Shown here in pieces: positions 41,602 through 53,537 of a stretch of 64,000 nt of DNA (position 1 is the stretch's first letter; each line of letters opens with the position of its first letter). The translations under genes and the position numbers were made by a program. Source of the stretch: Bacteroidia bacterium. Its GTDB lineage: Bacteria > Bacteroidota > Bacteroidia > SXHM01. The notes beneath the pieces are model-generated. The model did not search any database. It worked only from the letters and a program-made list of their open reading frames with translations, and was not told where the DNA came from. The DNA lies in NCBI GenBank assembly GCA_020054035.1, contig JAGVLY010000017.1:1961-65960 (forward strand). Reading direction: 5' to 3'.

Positions 41602-43908
41602 TTATTTTTTCAGATTATCCAGTTCGCGTTTCAGTTCTTTTTCTGAACCGGCTACAAGTTCAGTAAGTCTGTCAAGTTTAGCTTTTAACAAATCCTGATC
41701 ACTATTTTTTTCATCTGACTGCTCTATTGAATCTGCTATCTGCAATGATTCACTCATGCCCATCATCCCGAATGAAGATTTTATTTTGTGCGCTGTGCGT
41801 TTCAATTTTTCAAAATCATGCTTTTTGAAACTGGCTTTTATTTCTTTCAACATTACCGGTGTATTACGCAAATAAATTTCAATCATTTCAGCCATAAAAA
41901 CGTCATCACCACCGGTAAGTTCTTTTAGTGATTGAGTATTAACAAAAGAATCGGAAGCATATTCTTCACGCTTGTTTTCATTACTTTTATTACCGGAAAG
42001 TGTCAGAATCTTATGCAACAACTCACCCTGCTTAAAAGGTTTTGAAAGGTAATCATTCATTCCTGCTTCAAAGCATTTTTTGCGCTCCTCCACGAGTGCA
42101 TCAGCTGTCATTGCCATAATTGGAATCTGCGCTTTTTCTTTATCACGATACTTTCTTATTCTGCGGGTAGTTTCAAAGCCATCCATCTCAGGCATCTGCA
42201 CATCCATAAGTATAATGCTGTAATCATTCTTCTTGAATAAATCAAACCCTACTTTACCATTTGGAGCAATATCAAGGTCAGCATTCCATTGTTTGCTTAT
42301 GATTTTATGAACCAAACGTTGATTCATTTCATTGTCTTCACACAACAAAATTTTCATCCCGTTAAGATTAACATCTTCTGCCGGTGCAATTACTTTATTG
42401 ATGAGTATAATATCTTCTTCACTACCTTGTTCAAATTCAAGCGTAAAACTGAACAACGTTCCGGTTCCTTCATTGCTTTTCAGGTTTAACGTTCCTCCCA
42501 TCAGTTTTACTAATTGGTCAACAATGGTAAGTCCAAGTCCTGTTCCTCCATATTTACGGGTAGTATCATTGCTTGCTTGCGTAAAACTCTGAAATACCAC
42601 ATCTAATTTATCCTTCGGAATTCCAATCCCAGTATCTTCAATTTTAAACTGAATGATGCAACGTTTTTCAGCTATACTTTTTAATTCTGCACTTATTTCA
42701 ATCCAGCCTTTTGAAGTAAATTTCATTGCATTACTCACCAGATTAATAAGCACCTGATCCAAACGTACCGCATCACCAACCAGCACCTCTGGTATTTTAT
42801 GGTCTATATTGAAAATGAGTTTTACATTTTTCTGTTGCGCCTTCAGTGCAAATAAACTCTTCACTGTTTTAATCACTTCGGGGAAGCTGAAAAGCGAGTG
42901 CTCAATATTAAGTTTGCCAGCTTCTATTTTTGAAAAGTCAAGAATATCGTTGATGATAACAGTAAGATTATCACCGGCCTGACGAATTGCATTTACGCTA
43001 TCCTGCTGATCGCTGTTGAGTTTGCTTTGCATCAGCAATTCGGTAAAACCAATAATTGAATTCATTGGCGTACGTATTTCGTGGCTCATATTTGCGAGAA
43101 ATTGTTCCTTCACTTTTGCCGATTGTTCTGCAATATCTTTTGCACGAATAAGCTGAAATTCCGTTTTCTTCTTATCAGTAATATCACTAATGATCTCGAT
43201 GTGCTTTCCTTTCAGCTCATTATTTTCTTTTACCGGTGTATTAACAACCGAAATCCAGATGGTTTTTCCGCTTTTATGAGAAATTAGAACTTCTATATAA
43301 AACGGTTCACGAGCTGCCTGTTTTTTAATGGCATAGTTGATTGTTTCCATACTGGTATTAGGTCCAAGCATTACAGAACTTGGTGTTCTGCCTAAAATCT
43401 CATCGCTGCCGTATCCAGTAATACGGGAAAAACCTTCATTTACCCACTCTACTATTCCATCCGTATTAGCAATCAAAATCCCGTTTTCAGTGCTTTGCGC
43501 TACTAATGAGAGCTTATTAATTTCTTCATTCTTTTTTATTTCCTCGGTTATATCCTTTGCCGCTGCATAAATTATCCCTGTCTCCGGGTCAGGAGCACAT
43601 GTCCAATCCAAAATTTTAAGAGAACCATCTTTACAATAGTATCTGTTCCTGAAATGAATGGTAGGTATTCCTTTCGACAATTTTTCAACTTCATTCAAAG
43701 TTGCCTGCAAATCATCAGAATGAACAAATTCAAGGAAAGGCTTTGCCAGAAGTTCTTTCTGAGTATAACCGAGAACTTTTTCAAATGCAGGATTCAACTT
43801 TTTAAAATAGCCGTCAACTCCGGCAATGCAGAGCAAATCAAATGAGAGCGAGAAAAACTTCTCGAACTCAGCAGAAAAATTGAGTTTATTTTCTTTGGAC
43901 TGAGGCAT
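41602..43908 (-). CDS. hybrid sensor histidine kinase/response regulator with PAS domains and C-terminal Hpt domain
   Basis: 768 aa with two PAS domains, HisKA (SHEIRTPMNSIIGFTELL) and HATPase_c (GGTGLGLTI). A REC domain (ILLCEDNEMNQ...MDVQMPEMDG) and an Hpt-like tail (HKIKSSFGMMG) complete the architecture. Confidence 0.9.
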   Translation of the reverse strand: MPQSKENKLNFSAEFEKFFSLSFDLLCIAGVDGYFKKLNPAFEKVLGYTQKELLAKPFLEFVHSDDLQATLNEVEKLSKGIPTIHFRNRYYCKDGSLKILDWTCAPDPETGIIYAAAKDITEEIKKNEEINKLSLVAQSTENGILIANTDGIVEWVNEGFSRITGYGSDEILGRTPSSVMLGPNTSMETINYAIKKQAAREPFYIEVLISHKSGKTIWISVVNTPVKENNELKGKHIEIISDITDKKKTEFQLIRAKDIAEQSAKVKEQFLANMSHEIRTPMNSIIGFTELLMQSKLNSDQQDSVNAIRQAGDNLTVIINDILDFSKIEAGKLNIEHSLFSFPEVIKTVKSLFALKAQQKNVKLIFNIDHKIPEVLVGDAVRLDQVLINLVSNAMKFTSKGWIEISAELKSIAEKRCIIQFKIEDTGIGIPKDKLDVVFQSFTQASNDTTRKYGGTGLGLTIVDQLVKLMGGTLNLKSNEGTGTLFSFTLEFEQGSEEDIILINKVIAPAEDVNLNGMKILLCEDNEMNQRLVHKIISKQWNADLDIAPNGKVGFDLFKKNDYSIILMDVQMPEMDGFETTRRIRKYRDKEKAQIPIMAMTADALVEERKKCFEAGMNDYLSKPFKQGELLHKILTLSGNKSNENKREEYASDSFVNTQSLKELTGGDDVFMAEMIEIYLRNTPVMLKEIKASFKKHDFEKLKRTAHKIKSSFGMMGMSESLQIADSIEQSDEKNSDQDLLKAKLDRLTELVAGSEKELKRELDNLKK

Positions 43909-43939
43909 TTTTTTTGTCTGATTAACGCCCCTGCTGATT

Positions 43940-44620
43940 TTACAAAATATTCAGTCTTCTTACCAACCCATCTTTATTGGAGCGGCTTACAGGAATTAAT
44001 TTTTCGTTCAGCACAATAGTATTCTCCTCTATGGTACTAATTTTATCAAGCCTTACAATATAAGAACGATGTACACGCATAAAATCAGCAGACGGTAGTT
44101 TACTTTCAATTGCTTTCATAGTTGAAAGCACCGTGTAACGTGCTGTTTTAGTATAAATATTTACATAATCAGAAAAGGCTTCTATGTAATAGATATTAGA
44201 CAAATCCAGTTTTACCAATTTAGAATCCTGTTTAATCAAAAGCGAATTACTTCCTTCGCTTTTAACGTTCTCGTAAATCTGGCGAGCTTTTTCAACTGCC
44301 TTCATGTAACGGGCAAACTGAACAGGTTTCAGTAGATAATCAGTAACGTTATATTCAAATGCATCAACTGCATATTCCTTTTTAGAAGAAACAATAATTA
44401 CCTGACAGGCAACTTCTACATTTTTTATAAACTCTATACCACTCATCTCCGGCATTTCCACATCCAGAAACATTAAATCAATCTGATTGTCGCGGATTAT
44501 TTTCTGCGCCTCAATCGCATCTTTACATTCTGCAACGAGATTGAGAAAATCACTTCGCTCAACACATTTTCTTAAGGCTGCTCTTGAAAGCTCATCATCA
44601 TCAACAATTATACAGTTCAT
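43940..44620 (-). CDS. LytTR-family response regulator
   Basis: 226 aa. The REC domain (IIVDDDELSR...LDVEMPEMSG) is followed by a LytTR DNA-binding domain. Confidence 0.9.
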   Translation of the reverse strand: MNCIIVDDDELSRAALRKCVERSDFLNLVAECKDAIEAQKIIRDNQIDLMFLDVEMPEMSGIEFIKNVEVACQVIIVSSKKEYAVDAFEYNVTDYLLKPVQFARYMKAVEKARQIYENVKSEGSNSLLIKQDSKLVKLDLSNIYYIEAFSDYVNIYTKTARYTVLSTMKAIESKLPSADFMRVHRSYIVRLDKISTIEENTIVLNEKLIPVSRSNKDGLVRRLNIL

Positions 44621-44671
44621 TTTGTGGTTATTTAATGTTTAATAAAAATGCCGCTTCTGCGGCATTTCAAA

Positions 44672-45295
44672 TTATTTCCCTACTCCTTCTACATTCAATT
44701 CAATGCACCAGTGACCTGCTACACGGTTATTATACATATACAATTCAAATTTTACTTTAGGTCCTTTTTTAGCCTCATAGCCTACTAATTTCCTAAAGTT
44801 GGTATCTTCAAGATACAAGTCATTGGTTTTATCTTTATCCATCAATTTCCATTCAGGATTTGAGGCAAAGCAGGCTTTAATTTTTTCTTTATAGCTTTCA
44901 AACTCCTGAACCAATTTAGCTTCGGGAACATCACCTTTTACAGTGCTGGTTGCTATCAATTCTTCGTAAGCAGGATATTCCTGACTGTCGTTTACATATC
45001 CTTTATCTTTTCCTAAATGAGCAGTTGAAACAAAGAAGGGGCGGGCTACACCTGAAATTTGTTTGGATGTTGATTCGCCACGCAAACCTGTAAACTGTGT
45101 GTTTCCTGCCTCAACAATTTTCTTGAGGTTGGCACATAAATCGTCCTGAGCAAAAGCAAAGGTAAAAAATGCAAAAAATGAGAGGCTGGTTAAAACTATT
45201 TTCTTCATACTTTTCAGAATGGTTCTATTTAGGGTTGACAAAAGTAAATGTTTTATTGAAATAGAACTAAAATTTCTTGACGAAAACAAATACAA
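44672..45295 (-). CDS. hypothetical secreted protein
   Basis: A signal peptide at MKKIVLTSLSFFAFFTFAFAQ suggests the true start is at about 45208. No recognisable domain. Confidence 0.55.
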   Translation of the reverse strand: MYLFSSRNFSSISIKHLLLSTLNRTILKSMKKIVLTSLSFFAFFTFAFAQDDLCANLKKIVEAGNTQFTGLRGESTSKQISGVARPFFVSTAHLGKDKGYVNDSQEYPAYEELIATSTVKGDVPEAKLVQEFESYKEKIKACFASNPEWKLMDKDKTNDLYLEDTNFRKLVGYEAKKGPKVKFELYMYNNRVAGHWCIELNVEGVGK

Positions 45296-45362
45296 AGCCA
45301 GAATTTGATAAGCAGGCTATTTGTATATATTTGCAACCGCTTAAAAAAGGATTAAAAAACGG

Positions 45363-46512: not shown

Positions 46513-47838
46513 ATGAATATAGCAGTAGTAGGAACAGGATACGTTGGATTGGTTACCGGAACTTGTTTTGCCGAAACAGGCAACAACGTTATCTGTGTGG
46601 ATATAGATGTGGAGAAAGTCCGCAAGATGAAAGACGGTATTGTACCGATTTATGAACCGCACCTAGATGTTATTTTTGAACGCAACATCAAACAAGGTCG
46701 TTTGACTTTTACTACCAATCTTGCTGAAGCGATTGAAACAGCTAAAGTGATTTTCCTTGCGCTGCCAACACCTCCAGGTGAAGATGGCTCTGCTGACCTC
46801 TCCTATATTTTAGGAGTAGCCAATGATTTGGGAAAACTTATAAAAGAATACAAAGTAATAGTTGACAAAAGCACTGTTCCTGTTGGCACTGCAGAGAAGG
46901 TTCGCCTTGCCATTGCAAAGAATGCAAAGGTAGAATTTGATGTGGTGAGCAACCCCGAATTTTTGCGTGAGGGTTTTGCTGTAGATGATTTTATGAAACC
47001 CGATCGCGTTGTAATCGGAACAGGTTCTGAGAAAGCAAAGCACATTATGGGCGACCTTTTCAAGCCTTATGTGCGTCAGGGCAACCCTGTAATATTTATG
47101 GACGAGAAATCTGCGGAGCTGACTAAGTATGCAGCCAACGCTTTTCTTGCTACTAAGATTACCTTCATGAACGAGATTGCAAACCTCTGCGAACTATTAG
47201 GCGCTGATGTAGATAAAGTGCGCATAGGTATTGGCTCTGACGACCGCATCGGGAAACGTTTTCTTTTTCCGGGAATTGGTTATGGCGGAAGCTGTTTCCC
47301 GAAAGATGTGCAGGCAATTGCAAAATCTGCTTCTGATGTTGGTTACAACTTTGCCCTGCTGCAGGCGGTGATGGAAGTGAATGAAAAACAAAAGACCATC
47401 ATTGTTCCTAAAATCCTGGACTACTTCGGTGGTTCGTTAAAAGGCAAAAAAATTGCGTTGTGGGGATTGGCTTTCAAGCCTGATACCGATGATATCCGCG
47501 AAGCCCCTGCGCTTTATATAATTGAAGAATTGCTGAAAGCCGGGGCAGAAGTAACTGCATTTGACCCCGAGGCAATGAACAATGTAAAGAAGTTACTGGG
47601 TACAAAAATCAATTTTACAGAAAATCATTATGATGCGCTGAACAATGCTGATGCCTTGGTGATAGCAACCGAATGGAGTCTTTTCCGCAATCCGGATTTT
47701 GATAAAATAAGCGAACTGCTTAAAAATAAAATTATTTTTGACGGAAGAAATCTTTACGATACTCAACAAATGAAAGAACTCGGATATACTTATTATAGCA
47801 TTGGAAGAGAAACGGTAAAAAAATCAATTCATGCCTAA
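46513..47838 (+). CDS. ugd: UDP-glucose 6-dehydrogenase
   Basis: 441 aa. The N-terminal NAD-binding motif is IAVVGTGYVGL. The catalytic GGSCFPKD motif is present. Confidence 0.9.
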   Translation: MNIAVVGTGYVGLVTGTCFAETGNNVICVDIDVEKVRKMKDGIVPIYEPHLDVIFERNIKQGRLTFTTNLAEAIETAKVIFLALPTPPGEDGSADLSYILGVANDLGKLIKEYKVIVDKSTVPVGTAEKVRLAIAKNAKVEFDVVSNPEFLREGFAVDDFMKPDRVVIGTGSEKAKHIMGDLFKPYVRQGNPVIFMDEKSAELTKYAANAFLATKITFMNEIANLCELLGADVDKVRIGIGSDDRIGKRFLFPGIGYGGSCFPKDVQAIAKSASDVGYNFALLQAVMEVNEKQKTIIVPKILDYFGGSLKGKKIALWGLAFKPDTDDIREAPALYIIEELLKAGAEVTAFDPEAMNNVKKLLGTKINFTENHYDALNNADALVIATEWSLFRNPDFDKISELLKNKIIFDGRNLYDTQQMKELGYTYYSIGRETVKKSIHA

Positions 47839-48898
47839 CGAAAACAGTAATCACCTGACATATTTTAAAGTTCAAAACTTTAAATGTTTTGATTCTATTG
47901 AATTAGAAGATATAGGACTAATTAATTTTATTGTTGGTGATAATAACGTTGGGAAAACAAGTTTGCTGGAAGCCTTAACATTTGAGAATGATTTGTATTT
48001 TTTCAATTCAAATCTTGAAGATTTATTGTTCGACAGAGATTTAACCTCAGTTGAGAATACTTACAATGCAGAAAAACAACTTCCACTAAATTTTTATAAA
48101 ATTTTCTTAAATCAAAAGACAAAAAAGCAAATACTACAATTTGATTACAGGTTAAATGAAAATATAAAATTTGATTATTCTACAGAGGTAAAGCTATTTG
48201 AAGATGATGGTAAGTTTCATGATATTAAACCATTACTGTCTGAAGAGAAAATAATGTTCCGAAATGGAGAGTATGCTGTAATGAAAACAAATGGCGATGA
48301 TTCACTCACTGAAACACATTTACTCCCATTACTTGGCACTAATTCTTCTTCAGATTTAGTTGAATATTATGAAGCAACTTTGCAAGATAGCCCGATTTTA
48401 AAAAAACAATTCATTGAAGAACTTAAATATTTTATCCCCGATTTATTAAACATAGAAATTCGGATTTCAAAAGATCAATTTTCATTTCCTCATTTAATAG
48501 CAGCATTAGATTCTGTTGGCAAAACCATTCCTCTTTCAATGTTTGGTGAAGGTTCTTTGCGATTTTTTAAAATATTAATGGCAATCATAGTATTCAAAAA
48601 AAACAGATTAATGATTGATGAAATAGATAATGGCTTTCACTACAGTAGGTTAAAATCAGTTTTTCGTTCCATTGTAAAATCTGCCACTTCAAATCAAACA
48701 CAGTTATTTATTAGCACACATAATTCTGAATGCTTACGTTCCTTCAAGGAAGTTTTAGAAGAAATTGAATTCACACATCTTCAAAAAGATGTAAGAAGCT
48801 ACTCATTAAAAAAGCTACCAAATGAGAGCATCAAAGCCTACAAATACAATTTTGAAGAATTTGAACATGCAATAAACCAAGAAGTAGAATTGAGGTAA
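47831..48898 (+). CDS. ABC-type (AAA_21/AAA_15-like) ATPase of a two-gene OLD/PARIS/AbiL-class module
   Basis: 355 aa. Walker A is GDNNVGKTS and Walker B is RLMIDEIDNGFH. A signature-like SMFGEGSLRF and an H-loop FISTHN are present. The gene is AT-rich, overlaps the ugd stop by 8 nt and overlaps the next gene as TAATG. Confidence 0.8.
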   Translation: MPNENSNHLTYFKVQNFKCFDSIELEDIGLINFIVGDNNVGKTSLLEALTFENDLYFFNSNLEDLLFDRDLTSVENTYNAEKQLPLNFYKIFLNQKTKKQILQFDYRLNENIKFDYSTEVKLFEDDGKFHDIKPLLSEEKIMFRNGEYAVMKTNGDDSLTETHLLPLLGTNSSSDLVEYYEATLQDSPILKKQFIEELKYFIPDLLNIEIRISKDQFSFPHLIAALDSVGKTIPLSMFGEGSLRFFKILMAIIVFKKNRLMIDEIDNGFHYSRLKSVFRSIVKSATSNQTQLFISTHNSECLRSFKEVLEEIEFTHLQKDVRSYSLKKLPNESIKAYKYNFEEFEHAINQEVELR

Positions 48899-49476
48899 TG
48901 GATAAATCTGTTCAGATTTTTTTAGAAGGGAATTCAGACAAAAAGTTTTTCACTGACTATATTCAGTTCTTGTTTCCGGAAAAATCTGAAAAATTTATCA
49001 TCATCGATGTAGGCGGAAAAAACAAACTCCATTTATCTAAAAATGAGTTCAAAAAAAATACAGATGCAGGAGGAATCAACTTAGTAATTTTTGATGCAGA
49101 TGGTGATTTTGAAAATAGAAAAAAAGAACTTGAAGCTAAAAAAATTGAGTTAGGACTTTCATTCGAATTATTTCTACTACCCAACCACAATGGAATTGGT
49201 GATTTTGAAGATTTATTAGTAGCCGTTTCTAATCAAAAACACAAACAGATTTTTAATTGTTTTGAAGAATATCAAGGTTGCCTTACCAAACATGATCAAG
49301 GATATACTCTACCCAATAAAAAAGCAAAGGTTTACGCTTATTTAGAAGCACTTCTTCCTGTTTCGGAAAATGAGAATATAAGAATTGGTAAAAGAGATTA
49401 CTTGAATGCAGAACATTGGGATCTAAATCATCCCTTTCTAAATCCATTAAAAGCATTTTTGGAAAAATATTTATGA
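48898..49476 (+). CDS. small TOPRIM-like protein (DUF4276-like), partner of the upstream ATPase
   Basis: 192 aa. It has a conserved Glu in [11 protein letters not shown], then IIDVGGKN, and an acidic DxD-type cluster in LVIFDADGD. This matches TOPRIM nucleases of the OLD family. Its stop overlaps the uxs start as ATGA. Confidence 0.6.
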
Positions 49477-50417
49477 AAAAGAGAATATTAATCACCGGAG
49501 CCGCAGGCTTCCTCGGTTCACACCTGTGCGACCGGTTTATTAAAGAAGGATACCATGTTATTGGAATGGACAACCTGATAACGGGTAGTCTCAGCAACAT
49601 TGAGCACCTGTTTAAACTGGAGCAGTTTGAGTTTTATCACCACGATGTTTCAAAATTTGTGTTTGTGTCAGGCAAGCTGGATTATATTCTGCACTTTGCT
49701 TCGCCTGCCTCCCCTATTGATTACCTGAAAATTCCTATCCAGACTTTAAAAGTTGGTTCGCTGGGAACGCACAACCTGCTTGGTTTGGCCCGCGCCAAAA
49801 AAGCACGTATGCTTATTGCTTCTACTTCTGAAGTGTATGGCGACCCGAATGTGCATCCGCAAAACGAAGATTATTGGGGCAATGTAAACCCTATCGGTCC
49901 GCGCGGTGTGTATGATGAGGCCAAGCGTTTTCAGGAAGCTATTACCATGGCTTACCACACGTATCACCAACTGGAAACACGCATTATCCGCATATTTAAT
50001 ACTTACGGGCCACGCATGCGCTTAGATGATGGTCGTGCCCTGCCTGCCTTTATGGGTCAGGCGCTGCGCGGACAAGACATCACCGTTTTTGGTGATGGAA
50101 GCCAAACGCGTTCATTCTGTTATGTAGATGATTTGGTAGAAGGTATTTACCGTCTACTGCTCAGTGATTATGTAAATCCTGTGAACATCGGAAACCCTGA
50201 TGAAATAACCATCAAGGAATTTGCTGAAGAAATTATTGCGCTGACAGGAACAAACCAAAAAATAATCTATCATCCGCTTCCAACTGACGACCCAAAACAG
50301 CGCAGACCTGATATTACCCGTGCCCAACAAATACTTGGCTGGTCGCCCAAAGTTTCGCGCAAAGAAGGCTTGAAGACTACCTTCGATTACTTCAAGAATT
50401 TACCCGAGTTTAAGTAA
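49473..50417 (+). CDS. uxs: UDP-glucuronate decarboxylase (UDP-xylose synthase), NAD-dependent epimerase/dehydratase family
   Basis: The true start is [18 protein letters not shown], so the track ORF is N-terminally extended. The catalytic YDEAKR motif is present. Overall similarity is to UXS1-type enzymes. Confidence 0.85.
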
Positions 50418-50467: not shown

Positions 50468-51064
50468 ATGGGGCGCAAATCCATCAATAAAACCCGCAGC
50501 AACAGTCCGGCAAAAAAGGATGAATTGGTGCAACGACTTATTCCTTTTTTGCAGGAAAAGGGCCTGCAGGGCATTACCATGGATAATATGGCCGGGGCTA
50601 TGAACATCAGCAAGGCCACGGTTTACAAGTATTTTCAGTCGCGCGAAGAAATACTGGCAGCCGTTATTGCCTTTAAGCTGGATGAGATAAAAAACTTTGA
50701 ACTATATCTGAACGATATAAAGGTGGAATACCTTGACCGTTATAAAAATGCGGTGCAGTATTTATCTGCCCATATCTCCGACATCACCAACCTGTTTCTT
50801 GCCGATTTGAAAACCTATTTTCCCCACCTGTGGCAAATGATAGAAGCCTTTAAAGATTACTGCATGAATGCGCTGAAAGCCTATTATAACGAGGGAATCC
50901 GCAAAGGCTATTTCAACAAAATAAACCCTGCGATAATGGTAATGAGCGACCAGTTTTTTTTAGACAAACTAACCGACCCGGATTTTCTGGTTTCGCACAA
51001 ACTAAGCATGCAGCAGGCCTTTGATGAATATTTCAGAATGAAGTTTTACGGGATAATGAAATAG
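50468..51064 (+). CDS. TetR/AcrR-family transcriptional regulator
   Basis: 198 aa with an N-terminal HTH (ITMDNMAGAMNISKATVYKYFQSREEIL). Confidence 0.85.
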   Translation: MGRKSINKTRSNSPAKKDELVQRLIPFLQEKGLQGITMDNMAGAMNISKATVYKYFQSREEILAAVIAFKLDEIKNFELYLNDIKVEYLDRYKNAVQYLSAHISDITNLFLADLKTYFPHLWQMIEAFKDYCMNALKAYYNEGIRKGYFNKINPAIMVMSDQFFLDKLTDPDFLVSHKLSMQQAFDEYFRMKFYGIMK

Positions 51065-51069
51065 GGATA

Positions 51070-51151
51070 GAACGCAGATTATTATGATTTTTATGATTAA
51101 CGCTGATAAAAAAATCTTAACCAATCTTAACAATCATAATAATCTGCGTTC
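51070..51151. promoter_or_regulatory. 20-bp perfect inverted repeat (gaacgcagattattatgatt / aatcataataatctgcgttc) with 42-nt spacer, enclosing the downstream gene's ATG
   Basis: The arms are at 51070-51089 and 51132-51151 and are exact reverse complements. The ATG at 51084 lies inside the left arm. The stop of the TetR gene is 6 nt upstream, and a T5 tract follows the right arm. Confidence 0.6.
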
Positions 51152-52325
51152 CATCCTTTTTGCATTTCTCTTTCCGATAGCCGCCTTTGCCCAAAGCGAC
51201 AGCACCCGCACCGAACTATCCCTCCCAAAAAAGTGCATTGTTATTGAACCCGGAATACGTGTAGGAAAAATAATAAAAAACTTTCCCGACTTTCCGGAGC
51301 GCGGGCCGGCTGTGCTTTCCGAAATCAATATCGGTCAGCAATGCAGCGGCAACAAAAAATGGCATCAGTTGTATGGTTACCCAACAGCAGGTGTTGCTTT
51401 CATTTATGGTATCATGGGCAATGATGATATTATAGGACGCAGCTTTGCCGTGCTGCCCAACCTTAGTTTCACCACCAAAAAATACCGCAGATGGGGTTTT
51501 CAATGGAAGGTAGGAATGGGCTTTGCCTTCTTCACCAAAAAATACGACCGCATCACCAACCCCGACAACAGGCTTATCGGCACCACCATGACCAACATGG
51601 CCATCGGCAGTTTTGATTTCCGTTACGACATTTCTAAATTCTATACCATATTGTTAGGCGTTTCGGGCATCCATTATTCCGATGCGCATTATCAGTTACC
51701 CAACATCGGTATCAACTTTCCTGCAATTAATCTTTCCCTGAAATATTTTCCATCGGGTCGCCCGAAATTGTATAAAAACGACAGCCTTCCCGATTTCGCA
51801 AACAAAATACTGTTCAATGTACGGCTTGGTTTTGGTGCCAATGAATTTGGCGGTTCGCTGCATCCTACGGGCGGGGCAACATATCCTATTTATACAGGCT
51901 CGCTGTTTACATCCAAACGCTACAGCCGCAAAAACAATGTTCAGTTAGGCATTCATATAAACTACCACACGGCTTTTTATGATTTTATTGTTCAGCAGGA
52001 ATTGTACAGCAGCAACCAACGCATCCGCGCCTTTACGGGACAGATTTTTCTGGGCCACGAATTTATTATCGGACATTTTGGATTGCTAACCCAGCTCGGC
52101 ATTTATTTCTACAATCCATTCTTCAAATATTTACAGGAAATACAGGGCGATTCAAAAGGCTTCAGCAATTGGATAAAACGTGTCAACAGCAATAAATTAG
52201 GCGTTAATTATTACTTTATGAACCCGATGAAAACCACTAAACACAATGTATATATTGGTCTTGCGCTAAAAGCAAATTTTGGTCAAGCCGATTTTCCGGA
52301 AATAAGTGTGGGGTGTGCGTTTTAA
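51084..52325 (+). CDS. outer-membrane beta-barrel protein, possibly acyloxyacyl hydrolase (PagL-like) family
   Basis: 413 aa with a signal peptide ending AAFAQS. Alternating-hydrophobic beta-strand pattern with a C-terminal aromatic (GCAF). The family assignment is tentative. Confidence 0.5.
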   Translation: MIFMINADKKILTNLNNHNNLRSILFAFLFPIAAFAQSDSTRTELSLPKKCIVIEPGIRVGKIIKNFPDFPERGPAVLSEINIGQQCSGNKKWHQLYGYPTAGVAFIYGIMGNDDIIGRSFAVLPNLSFTTKKYRRWGFQWKVGMGFAFFTKKYDRITNPDNRLIGTTMTNMAIGSFDFRYDISKFYTILLGVSGIHYSDAHYQLPNIGINFPAINLSLKYFPSGRPKLYKNDSLPDFANKILFNVRLGFGANEFGGSLHPTGGATYPIYTGSLFTSKRYSRKNNVQLGIHINYHTAFYDFIVQQELYSSNQRIRAFTGQIFLGHEFIIGHFGLLTQLGIYFYNPFFKYLQEIQGDSKGFSNWIKRVNSNKLGVNYYFMNPMKTTKHNVYIGLALKANFGQADFPEISVGCAF

Positions 52326-52454
52326 AAAAAGTTTTCAGCGTCAATACTAAAACCTCGGGGTTGCCGTTTATGAGAATAAAAAACCTTTACTTTGCGCTAC
52401 ATGAATTTCACTTTTTTTGAATTCCATGTAGCTGTTAAAAAGCACTTATCTATC

Positions 52455-53537
52455 ATGAAAAAAAACATCTTCTCCTCTCTCCCACTCCTGTTTATTTCGT
52501 TTTGTTCACTGGCACAAAACCAAACTGGAGGAAACAACACTTATGATTTTCTGACCTTGAATGCCAATGCACGCATTGCAGCCATGGGCGGAAATCTTAT
52601 TTCGGTTATGGATGATGACCTTAACCTGTTCTCACAAAACCCTGCGGCACTCAATCCGCGCATGAATAATCAGCTTACGTTAAACTATGTTCCCTATTTC
52701 TCAAAAATAAATTACGGCTATGCTGCTTTTGCAAAAAACTTCGACAGCATTCCAGGAACATTTGCAGTAGGTGTACACTACGTTAATTACGGAACATTTA
52801 CCCGTGCCGATGAAACAGGACAAGTGCTTGGCGAATTTTCTTCCGGTGAGTTTGCGCTCAATCTGGGTTATGCTCATCAGTTTGGTAAAGACTCCATGTT
52901 CTCCGTTGGCGGAAACCTTAAAACCATTATTTCTTCCTTGGAAAGCTACAGTTCATGGGGCATGGGGCTTGATCTTGCAGGAACTTACCGTGGCAAAAAA
53001 GGATTTACAGCATCCGTTGTTTTAAAAAATATTGGCGCACAGTTTCAGGCCTACACCAAAGGAAATGCGGAAGCCTTGCCCTTTGAAATTCAGGTGGGTG
53101 TTTCGCAACAATTTGCGCATTTGCCTTTCAAAATTTCCATCATCGCACATAATCTTCAAAAACCTGTTTTGCGTTATGACGACCCTAACGATCAGGAACC
53201 AACCGTTGACCCACTTACAGGCGAAGAAATAAAACAGAAGAAATACATTGGCGATAATATTATGCGCCACTTTATTTTTGGCGGTGAGTTTGCCCCCGGA
53301 AAACGTAAAATTTTCAGCCTGCGAATTGGCTATAATTACATGCGCAGACAGGAATTAAAAGTGGATACAAGACCCGGAACCATGGGACTTTCGTGGGGCA
53401 TTGGTCTTAAAATTTCAAAGTTCAGATTCAGCTATGCACGTGCGGCTTATCACCTGGCAGGAGCATCCAACCACATCAGCATCAGCACCAACATCAGCGA
53501 TTTCCACAAAAAGGAAAAGCCTGCTCCTAATGAATAG
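52455..53537 (+). CDS. porQ: T9SS PorQ/PorV-family outer-membrane beta-barrel (PorQ-like)
   Basis: Signal peptide MKKNIFSSLPLLFISFCSLAQ. The N-terminal motif is TYDFLTLNANARIAAMGG...NPAALN. Its size (~360 aa) and position immediately upstream of cmk match the PorQ-cmk arrangement seen in Bacteroidetes. The track ORF begins earlier, at 52392. Confidence 0.55.
   Translation: MKKNIFSSLPLLFISFCSLAQNQTGGNNTYDFLTLNANARIAAMGGNLISVMDDDLNLFSQNPAALNPRMNNQLTLNYVPYFSKINYGYAAFAKNFDSIPGTFAVGVHYVNYGTFTRADETGQVLGEFSSGEFALNLGYAHQFGKDSMFSVGGNLKTIISSLESYSSWGMGLDLAGTYRGKKGFTASVVLKNIGAQFQAYTKGNAEALPFEIQVGVSQQFAHLPFKISIIAHNLQKPVLRYDDPNDQEPTVDPLTGEEIKQKKYIGDNIMRHFIFGGEFAPGKRKIFSLRIGYNYMRRQELKVDTRPGTMGLSWGIGLKISKFRFSYARAAYHLAGASNHISISTNISDFHKKEKPAPNE

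Follow-up and report, generated by a model that had tools for sequence, protein, structure and literature searches.

AbiL and PARIS have been grouped as systems that combine an ATP-binding cassette (ABC) ATPase with a TOPRIM protein (PMC13064643; PMC11464382). The TOPRIM effector of PARIS is held by the ATPase and set free by a trigger, upon which host lysine transfer RNA (tRNA) is cleaved (PMC13064643; PMC11464382). Pairs of an AAA ATPase and a TOPRIM_OLD protein have been validated as antitoxin and toxin in neutralisation assays (PMC10440598). Here we analyse a two-gene cassette that encodes an ABC-type ATPase and a small protein of the DUF3226 family, and that lies between ugd and uxs in a stretch of 64,000 nucleotides (nt) from a Bacteroidia bacterium (contig JAGVLY010000017.1). 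This whole stretch is referred to as the window, and positions are those of the window unless another locus is named. With a probability of about 0.72, we interpret the cassette as an AbiL/PARIS-like module of ABC ATPase and TOPRIM nuclease, belonging to the DUF3226 branch of the superfamily that includes OLD, Gabija, PARIS and AbiL, and as a promoterless defence or toxin-antitoxin cassette hitch-hiking on the operon.

The list of open reading frames (ORFs) places five co-directional genes in the region (degT, ugd, the 355-aa ORF, the 192-aa ORF and uxs; aa, amino acids), with the following features.

47831..48898, + strand: ABC-type (SMC/Rad50-head-like) ATPase, AbiLi-like, 355 aa; proposed sensor and antitoxin
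48898..49476, + strand: DUF3226 protein, 192 aa, TOPRIM domain followed by a C-terminal helical domain; proposed nuclease effector or toxin
47831..47838, + strand: left junction ATGCCTAA, ATPase start codon overlapping the ugd stop by 8 nt (read from the DNA)
49473..49476, + strand: right junction ATGA, uxs start overlapping the stop of the small gene by 4 nt; the same in the sister carrier L001
45363..46508, + strand: degT-family aminotransferase, first gene of the conserved degT-ugd-uxs operon (Pfam DegT_DnrJ_EryC1, 2.7e-113)
46513..47838, + strand: ugd, UDP-glucose 6-dehydrogenase, 441 aa, with three UDPG_MGDP_dh domains
49473..50417, + strand: uxs, UDP-glucuronate decarboxylase family, 314 aa (GDP_Man_Dehyd 3e-52, Epimerase 1.9e-49)

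The ATPase gene and the small gene meet at TAATG with a 1-nt overlap, likewise read from the DNA, and the insert extends from about 47839 to 49472 (1.63 kb). Direct reading confirmed the ORFs, motifs and three overlapping junctions that an earlier note on this DNA had described. Members of the 90%-identity cluster of the window uxs are named UDP-glucuronic acid decarboxylase family protein, and degT lies upstream of ugd in most related genomes.

Family assignment of the two proteins

The ATPase matches AAA_21, AAA_15 and SMC_N above the Pfam cut-offs, and the PADLOC AbiLi model (PDLC02336) over its full length (1.2e-45), with weaker matches to AriA, GajA and other defence ATPases. Its predicted structure is confident, with SMC, Rad50 and defence ATPases as the best structural neighbours, and the Walker A, signature, Walker B and H-loop motifs are present in that order within an SMC/Rad50 head fold.

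47936..47962, + strand: Walker A GDNNVGKTS, residues 36-44; G36, N38, G41 and K42 invariant in 68 homologues
47981..48535, + strand: central, variable part of the ATPase (residues 51-235), modelled with several beta-strands and helices
48533..48556, + strand: ABC signature region LSMFGEGS, residues 235-242; G239 and G241 invariant in 68 homologues
48608..48640, + strand: Walker B and D-loop LMIDEIDNGFH, residues 260-270; D263, E264 and G268 invariant in 68 homologues
48710..48724, + strand: H-loop ISTHN, residues 294-298; T296 and H297 invariant in 68 homologues

The N-terminus of the ATPase gives weak matches to RecF and Rad50 models, and RecR too has a Toprim domain, as stated in the title of Aravind et al. 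1998. Both observations would suit a housekeeping pair for DNA repair or maintenance, RecF/RecR-like or Rad50/Mre11-like and unrelated to defence. No NCBIfam model reached its cut-off with the ATPase, however, and the repair models all fell far below theirs. The pair is also AT-rich and patchily distributed (75 of 80 related genomes lack it, as do the closest relatives), and elsewhere it is found on small plasmids and in restriction-modification islands, as detailed below. We consider a housekeeping repair function very unlikely.

The small protein belongs to DUF3226 (PF11536), which it matches with 44.0 bits against a cut-off of 27 (E = 3e-11), residues 6-190 aligning to profile positions 3-205 of 208, and the small-protein homologues listed all carry PF11536. 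It had been thought to resemble DUF4276, but at E <= 0.1 the Pfam scan returned neither DUF4276 (PF14103) nor RloB. The confident model of the protein adopts the fold of the solved DUF3226 member PH0156 (PDB 2p62), and its best structural neighbours are the TOPRIM domains of PH0156, OLD and GajA. Only fold comparison succeeded in this respect; sequence searches of the PDB with the ATPase, the small protein or the DUF3226 profile returned no matches. The TOPRIM elements comprise an invariant Glu after beta-1, an invariant Gly after beta-2 and a DxD motif, and across 44 homologues of the small protein E10, G11, D14, G40, D66, E104, K142 and R166 are invariant, with D68 present in at least 90%.

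48925..48939, + strand: TOPRIM Glu motif E10-G-N-S-D14, paralleling E400/E404 of Bp OLD by sequence pattern
49093..49101, + strand: TOPRIM DxD motif D66-A-D68, paralleling D455/D457 of Bp OLD by sequence pattern
49207..49209, + strand: E104, at the start of the first helix (103-109) past the TOPRIM sheet; invariant, candidate second-metal ligand

The two-metal site of Bp OLD consists of the Toprim Glu, an acidic residue at +4, an invariant Gly, the DxD motif, an acidic ligand from the helical domain and a basic residue (PMC6755086). The conserved residues of the small protein appear to match these elements in the same order: E104 would, by analogy, take the place of E508 of Bp OLD, and the invariant K142 and R166 are candidates for the catalytic basic residue.

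Comparison with described systems

Pfam, PADLOC and the structural neighbours together bear out the previous description of the cassette as an ABC ATPase with a small TOPRIM-fold protein of the OLD/PARIS/AbiL type. The accompanying claim that a module of this kind is uncharacterised does not stand, since the PADLOC AbiL models recognise the pair and the literature already places AbiL together with PARIS. In Lactococcus lactis, AbiL likewise consists of two genes in one operon, an ABC ATPase gene (AbiLi) followed by that for a small TOPRIM/OLD-like protein (AbiLii), and the adjacent window genes match the PADLOC AbiLi and AbiLii models (as single-model matches). The AbiLii model is reported to superimpose on the OLD structure 6NJV (PMC13064643), which was also the top Foldseek match here. 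AbiLii, however, is placed in the RloB family (PMC10440598), whereas the window protein falls in DUF3226; AbiLi is given as 453 aa (PMC13064643), against 355 aa for the shorter window ATPase; and AbiL is plasmid-borne, whereas the window copy is chromosomal and lies inside an operon.

The differences from PARIS (AriA/AriB) lie in both components. AriB is a DUF4435 protein and the window protein falls below the DUF4435 cut-off, its match to the PADLOC AriB model being only 2.8e-4, while the window ATPase is smaller and its central insert is modelled with several beta-strands, in contrast to the coiled-coil insertions of AriA. With OLD and GajA (classes 1 and 2) the window pair shares an ATPase of the AAA_15/AAA_21 type, a TOPRIM fold followed by a helical domain, and a conserved series of E, an acidic residue at +4, DxD and a further acidic residue that would parallel the two-metal site of Bp OLD; those proteins are single fused polypeptides, whereas the window encodes two ORFs with a 1-nt overlap. 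PH0156 of Pyrococcus horikoshii (2p62) is only 15% identical to the window protein, undetectable by PDB sequence search, and was deposited without known function or partner. The same two-domain partnership occurs in the NetFlax pairs of AAA-ATPase and TOPRIM_OLD protein from Clostridium algidicarnis and Streptococcus agalactiae, for which experiments showed that the TOPRIM protein is toxic and that the ATPase neutralises it (PMC10440598); the window pair matches them by architecture. The toxin nodes of the NetFlax pairs are RloB-like or OLD_TOPRIM rather than DUF3226, and phage defence has not been demonstrated for them. DUF3226 is also not among the effector domains in the ATPase tree of the PARIS paper (PMC11464382). 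The DUF3226 branch is thus unstudied, yet the kind of module is already known, and only the operon position is unusual.

Insertion between ugd and uxs

Using uxs as the query, with one genome per species, we obtained 80 Bacteroidota loci. As the earlier note had supposed, adjacency of ugd and uxs is the norm: uxs comes directly after ugd in 75 of these 80 related genomes (gap -13 to +205 nt), often in the order degT-ugd-uxs, and none of them carries the cassette. A ugd/uxs overlap, of 4 or 1 nt, already exists in six of these relatives. Nearer to the window are L168-L170 and L172/L173, which were reached through the 90%-identity cluster of its uxs; they share its upstream synteny, from the hybrid kinase gene through the LytTR regulator gene, the small ORF and degT to a ugd of 441 aa, and lack the cassette, and the window ugd has 95% aa identity and equal length to those of the empty-site relatives L168 and L172.

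In the closest empty-site relatives, ugd and uxs overlap by 8 nt, through ATGCCTGA in L168 or ATGTCTGA in L172, and uxs begins with MPERKR or MSERKR. The start of the window ATPase, ATGCCTAA, which reads MPNENS, corresponds in position and sequence to the uxs start of these sisters, so that the ATPase uses the counterpart of the uxs start codon. The left coupling thus corresponds to the existing ugd/uxs overlap of the sister lineages and not to a newly engineered one. The window uxs is two residues shorter than that of the empty-site relatives (314 against 316 aa).

The cassette also stands out in base composition. The guanine-plus-cytosine (GC) content is 0.288 in the ATPase gene and 0.299 in the small gene, against 0.416 in ugd and 0.452 in uxs. 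Relative to the other 49 long ORFs of the window (mean 0.401, standard deviation 0.027), these values give z = -4.2 for the ATPase and -3.8 for the small gene, which are the most AT-rich genes of the window, and GC at third codon positions is 0.225 and 0.212, respectively, against a window mean of 0.377. Because this compositional break coincides with an empty site in relatives, the cassette is best regarded as acquired, in support of the horizontal origin proposed before. We rejected low GC as a universal trait of the family, the mean difference between pair and flanks being -0.03 across 50 loci; the pair lies 7 to 20 GC points below its flanks where these are housekeeping genes, and no such gap is seen inside islands.

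The insertion at ugd/uxs is not unique to the window. A sister carrier, L001 (GCA_975105155.1), presents the identical arrangement, with all three overlaps and equally low GC, and is 78% identical to the window in the small protein, 87% in the 3' part of ugd and 96% in the 5' part of uxs. Between the two, the ratio of nonsynonymous to synonymous substitution rates (dN/dS) is 0.04-0.18 in the conserved parts of the cassette, and the cassette has been kept under purifying selection. Synonymous divergence (dS) is 0.7 for the small gene and uxs and 1.4-2.1 for the ATPase ends and ugd; since the dS of the cassette is similar to that of the adjacent flanks, the insertion predates the split between the window and L001. 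Four-point sums group the window with L001 in the 3' region of ugd and are ambiguous in the 5' region of uxs.

The central part of the ATPase follows a different pattern. Over residues 51-235 (approximately 618-1260 in L001), the window and L001 ATPases have only 12-23% aa identity, against 80-85% at both ends, and the window central domain is 48% identical to that of L174, a member of a more distant carrier clade, and 23% to that of the sister L001. The sequences indicate that this domain, which sits between the Walker A and signature motifs, was replaced between the two sister carriers and did not drift gradually.

The second carrier clade consists of L174 and L175, in which ugd is 77% identical to that of the window and about 12 nt separate the cassette from the preceding ugd; the ugd nearest to theirs is found in an empty-site genome, L048. 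Among 95 other cassette loci tested, ugd or uxs stood beside the pair in L174 only, and in L175, whose upstream stretch of 54 nt fell short of what that test could score, the 3' end of ugd was read directly. Two histories would account for the patchy distribution: an old gain with several later losses, or recombination through the conserved flanks that spread the cassette.

These observations bear on whether the operon position is itself functional, tying the expression or activity of the nuclease to the synthesis of UDP-sugars or surface polysaccharides, a link that the earlier note had put forward. The exact site and the three overlaps are retained in two diverged genomes, a second and more distant clade also has the cassette right after ugd, and no promoter of its own was detected, all of which would favour such a role. 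Yet ugd neighbours the pair only in L174 and, by direct reading, L175, while most other cassette loci lie in restriction-modification islands or between unrelated housekeeping genes; close relatives run the same operon without the cassette; and the Pfam scan found no sugar-related or nucleotide-sugar-binding domain in either protein. The persistence of the site is equally explained by the cost of imprecise excision between coupled genes. Nothing links nuclease activation to polysaccharide status, and a functional position is most improbable. We infer that the cassette behaves as a defence or addiction module, not as a part of sugar-nucleotide metabolism; its embedding in the operon is an evolutionary detail and not evidence of a new function.

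Two features of the insertion boundaries were considered and rejected. An imperfect repeat at the boundaries of the insert (47837-47858 and 49478-49499; 17 matches over 22-24 nt, shuffle p about 1e-4) could be read as a target-site duplication, that is, a 22-nt imperfect direct repeat representing a duplicated 5' end of uxs. This reading was discarded on two grounds: His8, encoded by the shared TAATCACC, does not vary in 68 ATPase homologues, and NHLTYFKV also occurs in the clade-B ATPases, which have no overlapping ugd junction; the 22-nt repeat is probably coincidental. The C-terminal tail KSIHA of ugd was likewise dismissed as a product of inserted DNA, given that ugd of the closest relatives is also 441 aa long.

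A further empty-site genome, L171, carries a 7-nt tandem repeat, AAAGTYY, in about seven copies across the end of ugd and the 45-nt ugd-uxs spacer (L171 1551-1619). Its uxs starts with MKKR, as in the cassette carriers, and its spacer resembles the 5' end of the ATPase gene (score 30, p 0.006), a match of low complexity since the spacer consists of the 7-nt repeat. The L171 junction could be a remodelled junction or the scar of a cassette loss.

The locus offers a clean and datable case in which a housekeeping operon has taken up a promoterless defence or toxin-antitoxin cassette and stayed intact; the cassette takes the coupled start position of the downstream gene, a new overlapping start serves uxs and natural empty sites are available for comparison.

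Expression of the cassette

A single candidate promoter of the Bacteroidota type was found on the + strand between 44 and 52 kb.

45304..45333, + strand: candidate Bacteroidota-type promoter, TTTG ... TAnnTTTG, within the 67 nt that precede degT

The number of such motifs in the window does not exceed chance (8 found, 6.1 expected), and it is the position alone that is suggestive. No Bacteroidota promoter motif was found within or just before the cassette, no terminator-like hairpin in the cassette or at its edges (scan counts equalled those of shuffles), and no alternative start codon near the 5' end of the ATPase ORF; scans of sigma-70 promoters and intrinsic terminators returned counts equal to shuffles and were uninformative. 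As no internal promoter or terminator was found, co-transcription from the degT promoter is the most economical arrangement, and the cassette, which has no detectable promoter or terminator of its own, is presumably transcribed from there and translationally coupled to its neighbours.

The pair in other genomes

With the DUF3226 alignment as query, 80 loci were recovered from metagenome contigs and, from viral sequences (IMG/VR), two loci whose coordinates and match statistics are identical. Wherever the upstream DNA sufficed (80 of 80 loci), the DUF3226 gene is directly preceded by a co-directional ATPase gene, at a junction that is nearly always -4, -1 or 0 to +4 nt, and the pairing of the two genes is obligate. 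C5 DNA methylase genes make up 25 of the 63 distinct neighbours directly downstream of the pair, alongside 4 for N6/N4 methylases and 2 for Schlafen-like helicases, and the second downstream gene encodes a GHKL (HATPase_c_3) ATPase in 18 of 55 and a D12 methylase in 5 of 55. Further neighbours include SNF2/ResIII, GmrSD, HsdR, Vsr and PD-(D/E)XK genes, and a Cro/C1-type helix-turn-helix (HTH) gene precedes the pair in 9 loci. The family thus resides mainly in restriction-modification and defence islands. GenBank phages gave no match to the pair and IMG/VR only the two identical loci, and phages are not its typical carriers.

In many rumen and gut contigs, the pair is followed by a C5 DNA methylase and then by a MORC-like GHKL ATPase of about 710 aa, all on the same strand with gaps of a few nt or overlaps. 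This order was seen in L092, L096, L100, L114, L117, L119, L122, L147, L149, L156, L158, L163, L165 and others, often with the Cro/C1 HTH gene first, and it may represent one four- or five-gene system, not a chance neighbourhood. On a broader view, pairs of ATPase and DUF3226 protein would form a distinct class of OLD-like defence systems whose usual form is the operon of HTH, ATPase, DUF3226, C5 methylase and MORC-like GHKL genes; the window copy would be a minimal stand-alone version, and its retention at ugd/uxs in two clades would be adaptive, for instance by tying defence expression to an envelope-sugar operon that shapes phage receptors. We regard this combination as improbable.

Other copies lie outside such islands. 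In a human-gut lineage, the pair sits between an amidase gene and prmA, and in Flavobacterium arcticum between the genes for methylmalonyl-CoA mutase and a TonB-dependent receptor. In the cultured isolate Spirosoma linguale (L176 7001-9845), an HTH gene, the pair and an M42/M20 peptidase gene follow one another with 4-nt overlaps, with a HicA toxin gene nearby, a second instance, next to the window, of presumed translational coupling between the pair and what seems a housekeeping gene. A distant pair, 25% identical, is, besides mobA and rop, the sole cargo of ColE1-type plasmids of about 3.8 kb from Salmonella (NZ_AP026957.1, L180) and E. coli (CP056813.1). The Salmonella plasmid NZ_AP026957.1 is mobilisable, with genes for the ATPase, the DUF3226 protein, mobA and rop as its only annotated genes, and provides a handy minimal natural construct of the family.

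These copies raise the alternative of a purely selfish addiction (toxin-antitoxin) module without a role in defence, in which loss of the antitoxin would be lethal and embedding in an operon would make deletion costly. The AAA:TOPRIM_OLD pairs function as toxin-antitoxin systems (PMC10440598), a pair can be the sole cargo of a 3.8-kb plasmid, a HicA toxin gene lies near the Spirosoma copy, and the window cassette persists in its operon at low GC and under purifying selection. The strong association of the pair with restriction-modification and defence genes elsewhere argues against this explanation, as does the rapid turnover of the central ATPase domain, which is what would be expected of a sensor in an arms race, and toxin-antitoxin and abortive-infection roles are not mutually exclusive. 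A purely selfish module is unlikely on balance.

Proposed mode of action

As an AbiL/PARIS-like defence or toxin-antitoxin module, the pair would have the DUF3226 protein for its nuclease toxin, with the ATPase serving as both sensor and antitoxin. On the model of the homologous PARIS and AAA:TOPRIM_OLD pairs, the ATPase would oligomerise and keep the TOPRIM protein inactive. A trigger derived from a phage or from stress, which the ATPase would sense via its variable central domain, would release or activate the nuclease. The nuclease would then cut nucleic acid, with tRNA, other RNA or DNA all being possible targets, leading to growth arrest and an aborted infection. AriA of PARIS has insertion sequences within its ATPase domain, one of which has been proposed to act in trigger recognition (PMC11464382), and by analogy residues 51-235 probably constitute the sensing or specificity part of the window ATPase, where trigger specificity would reside.

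Several points weigh against this interpretation. The small protein remains below the cut-offs of the established effector families, with 19.2 bits for DUF4435, the AriB family (cut-off 27), and 14.7 bits (E = 0.045) for OLD-like_TOPRIM (PF20469; cut-off 23.2), and it matches the PADLOC AbiLii model (PDLC02338; 8.4e-10) over residues 61-191 only. Its putative catalytic geometry is drawn from the sequence pattern only, and the nearest solved structure, PH0156, was deposited as an uncharacterised hypothetical protein. A literature search returned no paper naming DUF3226 and no member of the branch with an experimental test. The neighbourhood statistics stem mostly from rumen and gut Bacteroidales contigs that are not mutually independent, and in the isolates, as in the window, the pair is set among housekeeping genes. 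Co-transcription with the operon, finally, is itself reached by inference. The locus leaves the current understanding of such systems unchanged; it draws attention to the DUF3226 branch of the ABC-ATPase/TOPRIM pairs, of which Spirosoma linguale and Flavobacterium arcticum are cultured carriers.

Genes flanking the operon

Searches of the whole 64-kb window (1-64000) gave neither tRNA nor transfer-messenger RNA genes, nor any Rfam family at or above its gathering score. The divergent stretch upstream of the operon (41602-45295, - strand) comprises genes for a PAS/HisKA hybrid sensor kinase of 768 aa, a LytTR response regulator of 226 aa and a 207-aa ORF. These assignments were taken from the syntenic genes of the cassette-free L168 and L172, in which the small ORF is 178 aa, and in the window the 226-aa product alone was seen translated. 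Downstream of uxs, the window contains ORFs of 198, 413 and 381 aa (50468-53537). The closest relatives carry M43 peptidase, PKD and Por_Secre_tail genes at that position (L168 7088-12083), and synteny with the window breaks immediately past uxs.

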